Below are positions 16,100 through 53,836 of a DNA stretch of 64,000 bases, piece by piece. The stretch lies in sequence record PP582757.1. One strand, given 5' to 3'. Numbering within the stretch: the first letter of the stretch is position 1; every line of letters begins with the position of its first letter. This DNA is from Klebsiella phage vB_KM5a1-KLB31. The notes under the pieces were generated by a model. The model was not told where the DNA came from, ran no database searches, and worked only from the letters and a program-made list of their open reading frames with translations. The position numbers and the translations under genes were made by a program.

Positions 16100-16107
16100 T
16101 ATTTATA
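16100..16107 (-). promoter_or_regulatory. T4 late promoter TATAAATA upstream of soc
   Basis: Plus tatttata; minus reads GATATAAATACACC about 31 nt before the soc ATG. Confidence 0.55.
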
Positions 16108-16635
16108 TCAGTAGCCTCGGTCTTGACGAGCGAAGTTCTCAGCATTTTTCAGATGATACAGCTTGTATATTTCTTCTGCGTCCATGCCAAGAGCCATGAA
16201 CTTATTCAAGAAGAAGTGCAGCTGATCGATGAGTTCGAATTTAATTTCAAGCTGGTCTTCAGGAGACAGGTCTTTAATTTTCTTGGCCTGCATTTCAGCA
16301 TGCTGAGCTTTCCAAGGTTTCCAGATAGCCGATGCAGCTTTTTCGCCGTTGCTCATACCGCCTAATGCAGTATAAAGTTCACGAGTTTCATCGCCAATAT
16401 AATCATCGTTAGCACGCAGCCAAGCCAATACTTCACCAGCTGTTTCCAGTGAATCAGGATGACGATTATGCTCAGGCTTATCTTTAGCCAGACGAATCTG
16501 CAGAGATTTCTGCATATCAAGCATTGCCTGCAGTGGGTCTTCATTGCCACGCAACATACCGTAATAACGACCAGTAGCATGGTCAAGAGCAGCTTTATCT
16601 TTTACTAATTGAGAACATTCATTAAAATGAGCCAT
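16108..16635 (-). CDS. 56: dCTPase/dUTPase (dCTP pyrophosphatase, MazG-like), gene 56
   Basis: Start at MAHFNEC. Matches to recalled T4 gp56: DPLQAMLDMQ, LETAGEV, SPEDQLEIKFEL, NFARQDRGY. Confidence 0.85.
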   Translation of the reverse strand: MAHFNECSQLVKDKAALDHATGRYYGMLRGNEDPLQAMLDMQKSLQIRLAKDKPEHNRHPDSLETAGEVLAWLRANDDYIGDETRELYTALGGMSNGEKAASAIWKPWKAQHAEMQAKKIKDLSPEDQLEIKFELIDQLHFFLNKFMALGMDAEEIYKLYHLKNAENFARQDRGY

Positions 16636-16671
16636 TTTATTTCCTTTCAATTCAAACGTAGAATAATTATA

Positions 16672-16980: not shown

Positions 16981-16995
16981 AGTTTGGAGGATAAC

Positions 16996-17181
16996 ATGAC
17001 TAAGAAACCATTATTCAGATTGAATAACCACAAGAAGAAAGTGGTAATAGTTTCTGTAGGGGTACTTGTTGTATTGTGGAATTTTATCATAATCCCAGTA
17101 GCAGCATCCAATGGCCTGGTTCTTCCACCAGTAACCATTGAACACCTTAGAACTGCTGCAACTTTGATGCTTGGATTCTAA
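16996..17181 (+). CDS. plus-strand small membrane protein (61 aa, one TM helix); 3-prime end convergently overlaps gene 61
   Basis: GGAGG SD 5 nt before ATG. MTKKPLFRLNNHKKKVVIVSVGVLVVLWNFIIIPVAAS has a basic N-terminus plus hydrophobic helix. Confidence 0.35.
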   Translation: MTKKPLFRLNNHKKKVVIVSVGVLVVLWNFIIIPVAASNGLVLPPVTIEHLRTAATLMLGF

Positions 17182-23160: not shown

Positions 23161-23385
23161 CTAACTCAACGTATATGTTTCACCAGTAGGCTTAACCGGA
23201 GTGGATTCACATATCTCGTATTGTTTATGGCATTTCTCACAGAAACCATGCCACCAACAATTCATTCCATCACCACCACAAGTCCCTTCATGAACAAAAC
23301 GCATATGGTTACAATTATAGCAACGGAATTGTGTAGCCTGATAGATTTTATAGGCTACATTACTTTTATCATTAATTATCGACAT
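23161..23385 (-). CDS. Cys/His-rich small protein (putative zinc binding)
   Basis: 74 aa with 9 Cys: CYNCNH...CGGDGMNCWWHGFCEKCHKQYEIC. Confidence 0.4.
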   Translation of the reverse strand: MSIINDKSNVAYKIYQATQFRCYNCNHMRFVHEGTCGGDGMNCWWHGFCEKCHKQYEICESTPVKPTGETYTLS

Positions 23386-23403
23386 ATTTTCCTCACAGGG
23401 CTC

Positions 23404-25785: not shown

Positions 25786-26963
25786 TCTGGGTACCTCATA
25801 GCATCATCACTATTATCTGTAATCGACACAATCTGAATAGAATTCAGAGGCATATCATTCTTAGACAATTGACGCTTATAGTAACGCTCACAATAGGTGC
25901 AAGTAGAACCACAGACTTCATTAGCACAATCAAAGTCAGGATGTTTGAACCAGCGTTTCATTAAGAAGCCGTCAAGCAATGAAGTTTCGATGTTTACTGT
26001 ATGACTGTAGTTCGCATCGGACTCGTTGTTATAGATGGTTTCTAGTGGCTTCCAGAGCTCAAGGAGATTGCCTTCAAATTTCTCAGAGGAATATGCCTCT
26101 AAAACTTTCATGATGTACTCTGTTGACCCTGTACGTCCTGACACTTTAAATTGAGTGATACCGATGTCACGATATAACTTCAGGTCCTGTGGACGAACGA
26201 AACGTGTACGCAGCCAGTTGAATGGGTCGGTGTCACGAGCTTTGATGCAGTGTTGCATCGGGTAACCATCCAATGATTGTGCATCTTCTGGTGTAGAGTC
26301 GGTACTGTGGAAAATATAGCAAGAATCACGATAACTGCAATGAGTGGTATAACCTTTACCAGCATTAGAGCAGAATTCATTGACCAAAATTTCAAAGATG
26401 ATTCCATTGTCATTACAGAATTTAGCGGCTTGTTTTAAGAATGACACACTACGGTTTTTATGAATACCACAGCATACTTTCTTGATATTATACTGGTCAT
26501 GAAGATACTTAATCTGAGTTACGGCGTCTACGTGCAGGATAGTCGAGATTTCGAATTCGATTTCAGTATTAACTTCACGAACAATTTGCATTACGATTGG
26601 GTTAGCAACAGTAATACGATATACGCCAATTGACCAGAGATATTGGACATATTCTTGGATAGCTTTCTTTTTCCATGAATCAAGTTCACGTTTGGTACCA
26701 GGATTAATACTGTTGAATGTATAGTTGAAGCAAATACCCAGTTCATTACAACGAGCTACATATTTTTCGAGCTCTTCATCTTTTACGTCAGGCAGACGGA
26801 AGTCTGGACGAGCGGCAACAAAGGCCATGGCTCGTGTAGAACCATAGACTTCGTTGATAAGTGAATCAGGGTTTTTAGCATTCAGCTCGACAATTTTATC
26901 CAGCAGGGCTAGGTCAAAGTTTGTACCAATTTTGAAAGTTTGTTTATGGTTTTGCATTTTCAT
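25782..26963 (-). CDS. peptidase U32 family-like protein (candidate prephenate-dependent hydroxylase, RlhA/TrhP/UbiU-like); Cys-rich
   Basis: 393 aa. N-terminal EVYGSTRAM and GVYRITVANPIVMQIV resemble U32 TIM-barrel blocks; EFCSNAGKGYTTHCSY resembles the U32 signature; C-terminal CANEVCGSTCTYC cluster. Tentative, by eye only. Confidence 0.4.
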   Translation of the reverse strand: MKMQNHKQTFKIGTNFDLALLDKIVELNAKNPDSLINEVYGSTRAMAFVAARPDFRLPDVKDEELEKYVARCNELGICFNYTFNSINPGTKRELDSWKKKAIQEYVQYLWSIGVYRITVANPIVMQIVREVNTEIEFEISTILHVDAVTQIKYLHDQYNIKKVCCGIHKNRSVSFLKQAAKFCNDNGIIFEILVNEFCSNAGKGYTTHCSYRDSCYIFHSTDSTPEDAQSLDGYPMQHCIKARDTDPFNWLRTRFVRPQDLKLYRDIGITQFKVSGRTGSTEYIMKVLEAYSSEKFEGNLLELWKPLETIYNNESDANYSHTVNIETSLLDGFLMKRWFKHPDFDCANEVCGSTCTYCERYYKRQLSKNDMPLNSIQIVSITDNSDDAMRYPE

Positions 26964-51190: not shown

Positions 51191-52171
51191 TTATTTCAGA
51201 AGAGTTACTTCAGCAATCTCTTCCCAACCATTTGCATCGGTAGCGACGAAGTCAGCCAGGTAAAGCGCTGTACGTAAGGAAACGTTACGGAGTTTAGTAA
51301 CATTAGCCTTCATCCAGTTGAGTGCCATGGACGTCTGAGCGTCGCTTAAACCACGTTTCTGCATCATGTTGGTGTTCAAGATTACATCTTCAACGCGAAT
51401 CATGATTTCTTCGTTTGAGTGAACACCCAGGTCCAGATAAACTGAACGTGATACAAGAGCATGAAGGTGTGGAGCAAGTTTAGAACCACGTTCTAATTCT
51501 TTATCGATATCAACGTTAGTGATGAAAACGATAGTACCTTCAAACTCGAATTCTTTATCGATGTTTTTGTCATCGAGGTAAGAAGAAGCAGTGCTCCAGC
51601 AAACTTTACGAGTTTCGCCTGTATCGAGTGCTGCTTTCAGGAGGTTAAGCATATCCATATCAGAGAATACGTCAACATCATCAATAAGCAGAACGCTGTT
51701 TGCATCACGGTTGTTCCAAAGCTGCTCATAAAGACCGATACCTGAGATTTTACCGTTGATGCTTTTATAAACGATTTCACCATATTCATGAGAAGTTTTC
51801 AGGGCTTTATCCAAGCTGTAAGTTTTACCAATACCTGCGGCACCAGAGATGATTAAAGAACGGATGTTGCCAGAGATAATACCTTTGGTCATCATGTTCA
51901 TAACTGTGAAGCGTTTGTTGATACGCTGTTTCATTTCTTCGACTGACTCAACTGTAGCCAGTAGAGAAACCTCCATACCTTCCATTTCGATATCAGATTT
52001 GAACACCCATACACCACGTTCTTTGCCATCAACTTGGATGAACACTTTACCATCACCAAGGTGTGCTTCATGAGCAGGAACAACATCTGGGAACCAAGTC
52101 TTGGTTGCAACGAATTTACCAGAGATGTCGTTACCGCGGAAAGTACCTTTGTTGATTTGAACGTTGAACAT
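51191..52171 (-). CDS. AAA/P-loop ATPase-like protein
   Basis: 326 aa; Walker A GAAGIGKTYSLDKAL, Walker B-like VLLIDDVD. Confidence 0.5.
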   Translation of the reverse strand: MFNVQINKGTFRGNDISGKFVATKTWFPDVVPAHEAHLGDGKVFIQVDGKERGVWVFKSDIEMEGMEVSLLATVESVEEMKQRINKRFTVMNMMTKGIISGNIRSLIISGAAGIGKTYSLDKALKTSHEYGEIVYKSINGKISGIGLYEQLWNNRDANSVLLIDDVDVFSDMDMLNLLKAALDTGETRKVCWSTASSYLDDKNIDKEFEFEGTIVFITNVDIDKELERGSKLAPHLHALVSRSVYLDLGVHSNEEIMIRVEDVILNTNMMQKRGLSDAQTSMALNWMKANVTKLRNVSLRTALYLADFVATDANGWEEIAEVTLLK

Positions 52172-52243: not shown

Positions 52244-52666
52244 TTATTTGCAAAGATTCCACTGAATCAGAGTATATTTTTCATTGTAGCCATCTTTAAT
52301 CATCATTGCAGCAAACTCTTCAAAGTTGTTAGAAGCATTGAAGAACGCTACAGCTTTCTTAGTAGGCTTTGCAACACGCTTTTCAGTTTTTGCAACTTTA
52401 ACTTCTTCAACAACTGGCGCTGCTTCAACGATATCGCAAGAACCATCTGAGTAGCGAGCCCATACTTCGTTACCAACTTTAAACATTGCTGCTTTACGAC
52501 CATTTGGCATTTCAACCATTTTGCCTTTCAGCTTAGTCACTTCAGTGATAACCTGATCGCCATATTCTTCATAACGATCTTTAGAAGTAACACCATCAGT
52601 AGAAGCAATCATTGGGAAGTTGAAGTGGTAATAAGCAAAGTTACGAATCGCGTAGTAAGTTTTCAT
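52244..52666 (-). CDS. hypothetical protein
   Basis: 140 aa. Confidence 0.45.
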   Translation of the reverse strand: MKTYYAIRNFAYYHFNFPMIASTDGVTSKDRYEEYGDQVITEVTKLKGKMVEMPNGRKAAMFKVGNEVWARYSDGSCDIVEAAPVVEEVKVAKTEKRVAKPTKKAVAFFNASNNFEEFAAMMIKDGYNEKYTLIQWNLCK

Positions 52667-52699: not shown

Positions 52700-52743
52700 T
52701 AGCTGATAGGTCTATAGTAACCTGCCTTAAAGCATATGTAAAC
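52700..52743 (-). promoter_or_regulatory. early promoter E14 (GTTTAC-17-TACTAT), back-to-back with a plus-strand late promoter
   Basis: Minus strand GTTTAC ATATGCTTTAAGGCAGG TTACTAT. Confidence 0.45.
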
Positions 52744-52751
52744 TGGAAAGT

Positions 52752-52759
52752 TATAAATA
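52752..52759 (+). promoter_or_regulatory. T4 late promoter TATAAATA on the plus strand
   Basis: aagTTATAAATAatttaggcctaaatAAGGAGattttATG; perfect consensus 26 nt upstream of the ATG. Confidence 0.55.
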
Positions 52760-52784
52760 ATTTAGGCCTAAATAAGGAGATTTT

Positions 52785-53558
52785 ATGTTAATTGCTGCAG
52801 ACTCTATAGAAAGCCTGAACACTAAGATTCAAGAGAAGATAGCTGATGGGATGTATTTGTTTGGAGCACCAACTATTCTACCATCTACACAGTTTGATTC
52901 TGATAGATATTTTCAGTTGATGTCTGACACAAGAGATACTGTACCAGGCCCGCCAGGTGCTAAAGGGGATAAAGGAGATACTGGAGCCGATTCTACTGTT
53001 CCGGGTCCTCCAGGTGCAAAAGGAGATACAGGCGCTGCAGGACTTTCTGCTTATCAAACATGGCTTAATCTCGGGCATACTGGTACTGAACAAGATTTCT
53101 TAAATTCCATAGCAGGAACAAGACAAAAATCTGAAGCGTTTTGGACCGGGTTGTCTATAGCATTGACTGCAGGAACTACTTACAATCTGATAAACATTTT
53201 GAAAGGAACACCTACTACTGCAGGTCAATTAGCTCCATTCTTTAGAATTGCTGATAATAAATTATGGCCATTCAACTCTGACACCACAATGACATTTAAG
53301 CTTAACGTAACAGGTGTTTTTACCGGTGTGAGTCAAGCCCGTAGTCTGACAATTAACTTTGTTGGGACCAACGGTAACACTTTAGTTCAAAACCGTCCTG
53401 AAAATGCTATAGACACTATGTCATTTGCCACATTCTTTAGTGTAGACAAGAATGGACAAATGGCAACTAATGGTTCTGTTATCGATATAATCGCCAATGG
53501 AGGTGTGTTCACCATTAACAGTGTTCTTTTAGTAGCAGAACAAGTAGTGAAGTCTTAA
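52785..53558 (+). CDS. plus-strand late gene: collagen-repeat protein (two VPGPPGAKGD(K)GDTGA repeats), putative virion or fibre-associated protein
   Basis: 257 aa; AAGGAG SD; Gly-X-Y triplets TVPGPPGAKGDKGDTGADSTVPGPPGAKGDTGAAG; beta-rich C-terminal domain; perfect late promoter; own terminator. Confidence 0.65.
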   Translation: MLIAADSIESLNTKIQEKIADGMYLFGAPTILPSTQFDSDRYFQLMSDTRDTVPGPPGAKGDKGDTGADSTVPGPPGAKGDTGAAGLSAYQTWLNLGHTGTEQDFLNSIAGTRQKSEAFWTGLSIALTAGTTYNLINILKGTPTTAGQLAPFFRIADNKLWPFNSDTTMTFKLNVTGVFTGVSQARSLTINFVGTNGNTLVQNRPENAIDTMSFATFFSVDKNGQMATNGSVIDIIANGGVFTINSVLLVAEQVVKS

Positions 53559-53567
53559 TGCCCAAAA

Positions 53568-53583
53568 GGGACCGTAAGGTCCC
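53568..53583. terminator. bidirectional hairpin terminator (GGGACC-GUAA-GGUCCC) shared by the convergent plus late gene and a minus-strand membrane-protein gene
   Basis: Plus aaaagggaccgtaaggtcccttta followed by ttattattt; both stop codons abut it. Confidence 0.55.
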
Positions 53584-53587
53584 TTTA

Positions 53588-53836
53588 TTATTTGTTAATC
53601 TGATTTTCGGCGATACGTGCCGGGAACTGAGCAACCCACTTCAGCAAAGACCATAATCCACCAATAATGAACAGTGGGAGCCATAAGATAAAGTAGAACC
53701 AGTAATCAGAAACAGATTCGATAGTATTGTTCTTGATGAATGCTTTGCACACCAAGAATCCGAGTGCAAAATAAACCAACCCAATAAAGATAGGCATAAT
53801 CCACCATAGTTGTGCTAATAGTAAAGTCATAATCAC
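53588..53836 (-). CDS. small membrane protein (two TM helices)
   Basis: 82 aa; Trp-rich hydrophobic segments. Confidence 0.4.
   Translation of the reverse strand: MIMTLLLAQLWWIMPIFIGLVYFALGFLVCKAFIKNNTIESVSDYWFYFILWLPLFIIGGLWSLLKWVAQFPARIAENQINK

Follow-up and report, generated by a model that had tools for sequence, protein, structure and literature searches.

The DNA considered here is a window of 64,000 nt from Klebsiella phage vB_KM5a1-KLB31 (sequence record PP582757.1), taken as one strand, and all coordinates below are positions in that window. A lone plus-strand gene, 52785..53558, stands in a region that is otherwise read leftward, between the homologues of nrdC.10 and nrdC.11 of phage T4. 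Our analysis indicates that this is very probably a late gene and that its product is probably a fibre associated with the virion. The predicted protein has three parts: a small N-terminal domain related to DUF1737, a short collagen-like stalk and a C-terminal knob of the type found in phage Sf6. It may well be a trimeric, collagen-stalked knob fibre that is anchored to the capsid as a decoration and acts as an adhesin, a proposal to which we give even weight.

The region is 97.6–97.7% identical to the Edwardsiella ictaluri phages PEi20 and PEi26 (Kanagawavirus, Tevenvirinae), and the PEi20 counterpart of the gene, ORF-099, bears the RefSeq name "tail needle knob". Already known are the gene family, its occurrence in T4-like phages, the homology of the knob and the annotation. 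No description of the tripartite architecture with a DUF1737-type anchor, or of a head-fibre reading, was found in the literature. An original prediction, made from the letters of the sequence, had taken the gene for a late, opposite-strand structural or fibre-like accessory protein rather than an early enzyme; the promoter geometry, the trimeric-type knob and the Gly-X-Y stalk all support this. The open reading frame (ORF), late box, Shine-Dalgarno sequence (SD), GTAAAC hexamer, hairpin and repeats listed in that prediction were all recovered where it had placed them.

Domain Architecture of the Product

The N-terminal domain, which the original prediction passed over, is the most informative part of the protein and points to the head rather than to the tail. 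DUF1737 was the top Pfam family for 7/7 N-termini of the family (best E 6.5e-6), and the member P0083 reached 26.2 bits, above the cut-off. A profile built from the seven N-termini and run against 1.8 billion representatives retrieved only 25 proteins, which were family members together with small proteins of 55–100 amino acids (aa) that pass Pfam's own threshold for DUF1737 (E 1e-5 to 1e-3). A separate AlphaFold2 (AF2) model of the domain, with a predicted local distance difference test score (pLDDT) of 77.7, has a strand at residues 2-5, a helix at 8-20, strands within 23-32 and a strand at 41-48. In a Foldseek comparison with BFVD, it matched viral proteins annotated as DUF1737 at TM-scores of 0.69–0.89 and a root mean square deviation (rmsd) of 1.3–4.1 Å.

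This predicted fold, one helix on three strands, matches the description of residues 2-57 of gp84 of phage phi24B. According to a cryo-electron microscopy (cryo-EM) preprint of April 2026 on phi24B, an Stx phage, the DUF1737 domain of gp84, a NanS-p esterase, binds the centres of capsid hexons, and DUF1737 proteins are proposed to be widespread capsid decorators (bioRxiv 10.64898/2026.04.10.717836). Aligned to our query, gp84 (HM208303 vb_24B_21) is 20% identical. The loop that leads into its last strand carries Tyr42; the equivalent loop of the query is longer. By analogy with gp84, the product would be anchored to the capsid, and for this placement we find the balance of probabilities roughly level.

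The C-terminus had been noticed for its richness in beta strands and was identified as an Sf6-type, TNF-like knob by Pfam, by sequence search of the PDB and by Foldseek. Its Pfam match, to PF16532 (Phage_tail_NK), scored 102 bits where the cut-off is 27 (E 3.7e-29) and extended over positions 31-175 of the 175 in the profile; the C-terminus also matched PHROG 1030 (E 1e-70), for which the PHROG name is also "tail needle knob". A phmmer search of PDB sequences gave the knobs of HS1 and Sf6 (4k6b and 3rwn) at E ~5e-27. The AF2 model of the knob was superposed by Foldseek on the same two structures with a TM-score of 0.85 (target-normalised 0.81–0.86), an rmsd of 2.4–3.1 Å and 38–40% identity. 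As these crystal structures are trimeric, the knob is by homology a likely homotrimer. More distant Foldseek matches of the model were C1q, BclA, ExsFA, PRD1 P5 and TNF-like lectins (BC2L-C, PLTL).

Between these two domains lie the stalk and a linker. The two near-identical Gly-X-Y repeats described earlier are real, with five triplets in each run (aa 55-69 and aa 74-88, with STVP between them); the repeats read TVPGPPGAKGDKGDTGA (aa 52-68) and TVPGPPGAKGDTGA / TVPGPPGAKGD---TGA (aa 71-84). The tract scored 20.9 bits against Pfam Collagen (PF01391), below the cut-off of 27.2, and homologues with longer tracts carry PF01391. Stalk length among the homologues runs from 0 triplets (RB43 type) to >20 (P0077), this being the fastest-changing part of the protein, and such variation fits what would be expected of a spacer. 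One metagenomic variant, P0002, which is 96% identical, has a Gly-X-Y tract that is one triplet shorter. A recent DNA duplication of the collagen repeat was considered and rejected: Tandem Repeats Finder gave a trivial 9-nt repeat, and the copies differ at synonymous sites. The linker pattern SAYQxW...GT..DFL is conserved in the family, and several of the partial homologues matched over stalk and linker are collagen proteins with other C-terminal domains.

Head-Module Context Outside the T4-Like Phages

In the sequenced phages, the anchor was found only together with the knob, and only in T4-like myoviruses and Carvaje-like siphoviruses (42 records). The tails of these two groups are unrelated, and for both we assume the HK97-type capsid fold that is general to tailed phages. 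We take this to make the head the more probable place of docking.

In the siphovirus Carvaje, the gene for a full-length homologue that includes the anchor (36% identity) immediately follows that of the large terminase and precedes that of the portal. In Carvaje-like metagenomic contigs (L015 8001-9563, encoding P0082; also L016 and L017), the slot after the terminase is taken by a 520-aa protein. P0082 combines two DUF1737-like domains in tandem with about seven repeats of the form "...IQWR...W..L" and an unrelated C-terminus. The proteins of this slot keep the anchor and have the outer end swapped.

A collagen-knob protein with a different N-terminus is encoded by two myophages of 146–148 kb (P8734 and contig L018), where its gene lies between those of the major capsid protein and the head-tail adaptor. 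Its neighbours are a head-decoration gene and a small gene with a phi29 head-fibre domain. The latter, of 99 aa (PF11133; PHROG name "head fiber protein"), stands immediately downstream of the collagen-knob gene (L018 8786-9085; L009 6501-6800), and the two products may work together. Structural genes of myophages of this kind fall in Pfam families named after phiTE; the paper on the phiTE structure mentions neither knobs nor head fibres.

Several capsid fibres and decorations reported in other phages bear on this context. The collagen-like gp12 of SPP1 sits as a trimer on hexon centres (PMC7602432), and a decoration protein of Bas63 is encoded >10 kb from the structural module (PMC12609058). 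In the vibriophage Seahorse, knobbed capsid fibres of ~10 nm were seen by cryo-electron tomography, with no gene assigned (PMC7012835).

Expression Signals and Coding Potential

The perfect T4 late promoter claimed for the gene shows canonical geometry when it is set against the late genes of PEi20, and the box is kept in other genera. TATAAATA at 52752-52759 is the sole plus-strand copy in the window. The window holds 2 copies in all against 3.84 expected by chance, and the raw count was therefore discarded as evidence; the late-gene reading follows from the placement of the box and its conservation across genera. Computed from the background rate, the chance of a box on the correct strand 11-48 nt upstream of the start at 52785 is ~0.001. 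As a positive control, the 45-kb structural region of PEi20 contains 16 boxes, 11 of which end 11-48 nt before late-gene starts on the same strand (genes 13, 18, 19, 20, 22, 24, uvsW, inh, uvsY.-2, 26 and 51).

A perfect TATAAATA also stands 17-27 nt upstream of the homologues in fHe-Yen9-01 (Tegunavirus) and AnYang (Dhakavirus), where the late box and the divergent -35 that abuts it stand out as the main blocks of conservation and the remainder has diverged. At the position of the box, RB43 carries CATAAATA and RZ has no clean box. The early -35 next to the late box is GTTTAC, with a -10-like hexamer, in AnYang and a near-consensus GTGTAC in fHe-Yen9-01. A GGAG-type SD occupies the same position at the homologues of fHe-Yen9-01, AnYang and RZ, and a GC-rich hairpin lies directly 3' of the stop in 5/5 other loci examined (PEi20 and four homologues from other genera).

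In the window, the predicted transcript start from the late box is around 52765-52766. The AAGGAG and the bidirectional hairpin that had been assigned to the gene are both present, and the hairpin is stable on both strands: its folding energy is -15.6 kcal/mol on the plus strand (z -4.6) and -14.2 kcal/mol on the minus strand (z -3.3), with a T-run on each side. It occupies the 29-nt gap between the convergent stops of 52785..53558 and the leftward ORF 53588..53836. The candidate leftward early promoter placed back-to-back with the late box was recovered as well. GTAAAC at 52738-52743 is GTTTAC on the minus strand, and a consensus scan gave a -35 of GTTTAC/TTTACA (52743-52737), a 17-nt spacer and a -10 of TACTAT (52719-52714), with 9/12 matches. 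PEi20 has back-to-back divergent perfect late boxes at 23382-23403 (inh/uvsW) and 26932-26943 (genes 26/51) of the contig examined (L010), and given such routine tight packing of divergent promoters there is nothing out of the ordinary in the early/late pair at 52714-52759 as such.

The window's other perfect TATAAATA, at 16100-16107 on the minus strand, is 30 nt upstream of soc. Both late boxes in the early region thus precede a small self-contained gene, and since one of these genes is the capsid decoration gene soc, the pattern was counted toward the late-gene reading. The soc gene itself stands after a gp56-like dCTPase gene (16650..16108, minus strand). Judged by these signals, we are highly confident that 52785..53558 is a late gene.

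It is also a real gene under purifying selection, as the comparison with PEi20 indicates: of 21 codon differences, 16 are synonymous and 5 non-synonymous. Of these five replacements, three lie in the Gly-X-Y tract, at aa 66-69 (52980-52991). The upstream spacer of 118 nt is identical in the window and PEi20, and the start is kept among homologues (MLIxA... in the alignment). Two other origins were considered and rejected. The GC content of the ORF (0.37–0.43) is the same as that of its flanks and gives no signal of foreign origin, and a mobile or homing element was set aside, the Pfam search having found no nuclease or integrase domain in the ORF.

Locus and Distribution in T4-Like Phages

The window is strongly biased in strand: ORF sequence amounts to 55.8 kb on the minus strand and ~3.1 kb on the plus strand. 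It has seven other plus-strand ORFs, five without a PHROG match, one with a marginal match (E ~1e-3) and one that matches phrog_2024. The last (16984-17181, 65 aa, E 2.8e-15, function unknown) lacks a perfect late box and may be a second genuine opposite-strand gene of the window.

That nothing comparable sits at this place in T4 holds true, nrdC.10 and nrdC.11 being directly adjacent there with no gene between them; yet the gene is not unique among T4-like phages. Full-length homologues with 45–58% identity were found in Tegunavirus, Dhakavirus, Gaprivervirus, Pseudotevenvirus (RB43, Miller, CfP1 and others) and further T4-like phages. At least five T4-like genera have a full-length homologue at the same kind of locus, and at every homologue locus examined it stands alone on the opposite strand amid leftward early genes, a few genes at most from nrdC.11. 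CIP9, of the same genus, has neither 52785..53558 nor its left neighbour and runs from nrdC.10 through a small membrane protein to nrdC.11. EcS1 has two leftward ORFs where the knob gene would stand. The left neighbour (52244-52666) is itself variable between lineages, present in PEi20 and EcS1 and absent from CIP9, which makes the gap between nrdC.10 and nrdC.11 a hot spot of gene gain and loss. The homologue of nrdC.10 (51191-52171, minus strand, 326 aa, phrog_1250) has a Walker-A-like GAAGIGKT and weak similarity to clamp-loader/AAA+ families (phrog_168, E 4.6e-4).

Homologues of the Sf6 knob in T4-like phages, of unknown function, were noted by Leavitt et al. in 2013 and set outside the needle clade (PMC3741392). 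Among sequenced phages, no Aeromonas phage has the N-terminal module, and in Aeromonas phage 44RR2.8t (L019 40000-85000) the annotation shows no knob gene in the neighbourhood of nrdC.11 or tk; the Aeromonas homologues in that study must therefore differ in both architecture and locus. The features of the window are collected in Table 1.

Table 1. Features of the knob gene and its surroundings in the 64,000-nt window
Feature	Position	Strand	Description
Coding sequence	52785..53558	+	257 aa plus stop; = PEi20 ORF-099 / YP_009190257.1
N-terminal module, aa 1-48	52785..52928	+	Divergent DUF1737-like beta-alpha-beta-beta domain; putative capsid-binding anchor
Collagen-like stalk, aa 55-88	52947..53048	+	Gly-X-Y triplets, two runs of five each
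Conserved linker, aa 89-108 (SAYQTWLNLGHTGTEQDFLNS)	53049..53108	+	Two short helices (alignment, AF2 model)
Sf6-type knob, aa 109-253	53109..53543	+	TNF/C1q-like jelly roll, expected trimer
T4-type late promoter box TATAAATA	52752..52759	+	Perfect; ends 25 nt before ATG
Shine-Dalgarno AAGGAG	52774..52779	+	5 nt upstream of ATG
Leftward sigma-70-type (T4 early-like) promoter	52714..52743	-	For ORF-098 homologue 52666..52244; consensus match only
Bidirectional intrinsic-terminator-like hairpin	53565..53586	both	GGGACC-GTAA-GGTCCC, GC-rich, 9-bp
Left neighbour (ORF-098 homologue)	52244-52666	-	140 aa, phrog_33156, function unknown
Soc gene, 82 aa	16069..15821	-	Pfam PF16855, 67.6 bits

Proposed Mechanism and Points Against It

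From the sequence elements, domain homologies, predicted folds and conserved locus and orientation described above, we infer the following course of events. The gene would form a self-contained late unit of promoter, ribosome-binding site, coding sequence and bidirectional terminator, set opposite to the leftward early nrdC.10-nrdC.11 region. After the onset of replication, RNA polymerase carrying gp55 would start at ~52765 and stop at the hairpin, and the fibre would be made alongside the other virion proteins. Trimerisation of the knob would nucleate a collagen-like triple helix, forming a stalk that we estimate at ~10 nm. If the hexon plug of phi24B gp84 is a guide, three DUF1737-like domains would fix the fibre to the outside of the capsid. 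The exposed knob could then serve as a weak, reversible adhesin for a ligand on the host surface or in the environment, dispensable for plaque formation. Weak, reversible adhesion has been proposed for Hoc, for the head fibres of phi29 and for SPP1 gp12.

More broadly, T4-family phages and unrelated siphoviruses might have in common a third, so far unrecognised class of head decoration, a DUF1737-plugged knob fibre that stands beside Hoc and Soc or competes with them and whose outer domain is exchangeable. This wider proposal is tentative, and we place it a little short of even.

Several points weigh against a capsid-anchored fibre. The N-terminus of the query reached 13.8 bits against DUF1737 (PF08410; E 0.053), below the cut-off of 24. 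An hhalign comparison of the family's N-terminal profile with a DUF1737 set speaks for the match, with 99.1% probability (E 1.6e-18, 47 columns), but is partly circular, the set having been drawn from proteins that this profile had retrieved. None of the solved structures resembled the domain: PDB sequences searched by profile gave only coiled coils matched by chance, and the best Foldseek match in the PDB was a generic beta-alpha-beta at E 0.35. The "tooth" formed by Tyr42 of gp84 is loosely paralleled by an aromatic residue in the loop (F37 in the query; Y in fHe-Yen9-01 and RB43), which some homologues lack. Binding of DUF1737 to capsids rests on a single preprint and on the T=9 capsid of a podovirus, not on the gp23 lattice of T4; the phi24B domain binds as a hexamer, and a collagen/knob fibre is expected to be trimeric. 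Ten interrupted triplets are short for a stable triple helix. The weaker PHROG matches to stalk and linker (~aa 50-116) are mostly to tail-fibre families. The literature on T4-like carriers of the gene (fHe-Yen9-01, GuL6, CfP1, vB_EcRAM-01 and PEi20/26) yielded no transcript, proteome, EM or functional data.

The site on the capsid raises a further objection. In T4, Hoc and Soc fill the hexon centres and the sites between capsomers. PEi20 has a Hoc-like gene of 273 aa and the window has soc, so the obvious capsid site may already be taken. Since Hoc and Soc coexist with the knob gene in PEi20-like phages, the knob fibre would be an additional component and not a replacement. For the same reason a complementary distribution, in which the knob gene occurs only where Hoc is absent, was ruled out by the Hoc-like gene of PEi20. 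In RB43 (L014, NC_007023, 15353-15856), hoc is annotated only as two fragments of 61 and 47 aa ("Hoc-like head decoration"); this phage, a single case, may be without a functional Hoc while carrying a knob protein that lacks collagen. The ORF of the window itself has no match to Hoc or Soc in Pfam or PHROGs.

Alternative Placements of the Fibre

An accessory fibre of the tail, baseplate or neck, with the knob as an auxiliary receptor-binding tip that modulates host range, could draw on the same expression signals, which look late in type as those of tail genes do. We consider such a fibre, whose N-terminal domain would dock on a component of the tail or collar, unlikely. It would account for the collagen tract and the SAYQxW...GT..DFL linker, a combination common to many tail-fibre families, and a podovirus knob at the tail tip is known to affect DNA delivery (PMC3741392). 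The N-terminal domain argues otherwise, the sole structurally placed DUF1737 domain being on a capsid, and this anchor is common to T4-like myoviruses and Carvaje-like siphoviruses, whose tails are unrelated. Moreover, in the phages examined outside the T4-like group (Carvaje, P8734 and contig L018), the gene is found with the head genes rather than with those of the tail.

The product might also not belong to the virion at all. As a soluble, trimeric, lectin-like late factor freed at lysis, it might mask receptors on debris or on cells nearby, or bind environmental glycans; this we regard as improbable. Sporadic in its distribution and dispensable, the gene is lacking in T4, CIP9 and EcS1, the literature yielded nothing that directly places its product in T4-like virions, and the fold search retrieves the soluble lectins BC2L-C and PLTL too. 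There is also the precedent of phi24B gp84, long taken for a non-structural conversion factor (bioRxiv 10.64898/2026.04.10.717836). Against a soluble role, a knob-domain protein of the Vi01-like myovirus Sajous1 was recovered among the structural proteins with 16 mass spectrometry peptides, from a preparation that also held non-structural proteins (PMC10892097). Pfam and the AF2 model showed no signal peptide or enzymatic domain in the ORF, the conserved N-domain is of anchor type and related to a capsid binder, and the context in other phages is that of a head module.

The gp5/gp5.4 spike that T4-like myoviruses bear in place of a needle counts against the product being a tail needle knob. 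A genuine needle knob, of the kind that Sf6- and P22-like podoviruses have at the far end of a central tail needle, is highly improbable: the strong homology to the Sf6 and HS1 needle knobs is limited to aa 109-253, with no gp26-type N-terminal plug and no long trimeric coiled coil, a single 13-residue helix precedes the Gly-X-Y tract and no needle-shaft family was matched, the surroundings of the gene are the early nrdC region of a T4-like myovirus rather than a podovirus tail cluster, and the T4-like proteins fall outside the needle clade (PMC3741392). The RefSeq and PHROG name that favours the needle is a transfer from domain annotation, which the architecture contradicts.

Comparison With Known Systems

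A capsid-anchored knob fibre would combine elements that are known separately. The knobs of Sf6 and HS1 (PF16532; 3RWN, 4K6B) are homologous to the C-terminal 145 aa of the product (~38–40% identity) and share the TNF-like jelly roll at the extreme C-terminus. Theirs, however, caps a long coiled-coil needle that plugs the podovirus tail, whereas in the T4-like myovirus of the window the knob is preceded by a DUF1737-like domain with a short collagen stalk, and its gene is far from the tail genes.

In phi24B gp84, a small N-terminal domain of the DUF1737 family (a helix and three strands) is likewise followed by an exposed functional module, and the protein is late-expressed and encoded outside the core head gene cluster, as the window gene is, with late expression of the latter predicted from its promoter. 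The two differ in that gp84 has a distal esterase, undergoes proteolytic processing and attaches in hexameric form to the T=9 capsid of a podovirus; their identity is ~20%, and capsid binding by the version in the window is a prediction.

A parallel for the stalk is SPP1 gp12, a non-essential, short Gly-X-Y trimer on the hexon centres of a tailed-phage capsid, which gives a precedent for trimeric collagen on a six-fold site. It has no knob, no DUF1737 anchor and no sequence relationship to the window protein, and is reportedly of ~6.6 kDa, a size attributed to Zairi et al. in 2014. C1q, BclA and ExsFA resemble the product in having a Gly-X-Y stalk that ends in a trimeric jelly-roll head which nucleates folding (Foldseek E ~1e-4). 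They differ in their much longer collagen regions and other biological settings, at 10–13% identity and TM-scores of 0.5–0.6.

Hoc and Soc of T4 are, as proposed for the product, late-expressed and dispensable proteins of the outer capsid, and soc of the window is small and has its own perfect late box in the early region. They are not homologous to the product: Hoc is a monomeric string of Ig-like domains, and Soc is a small clamp.

Significance

The label "tail needle knob" has spread over dozens of myovirus genomes, and the present analysis corrects it. If the product is a capsid-anchored fibre, DUF1737 would be a general, portable capsid anchor, and a function would be given to the "tail needle knob" proteins of myoviruses. 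The finding of capsid binding by DUF1737 would be extended to a second, markedly different architecture and to two further morphotypes, myoviruses and siphoviruses. The role of the Sf6-knob homologues in T4-like phages, a question standing since 2013, becomes directly testable. The T4 head is the best-studied phage capsid and, through Hoc and Soc, the basis of a display and vaccine platform. A third natural surface fibre of T4-like phages, with an anchor of ~50 aa, would offer a new handle for capsid display and would be an extra determinant of how these phages stick to hosts or mucus.

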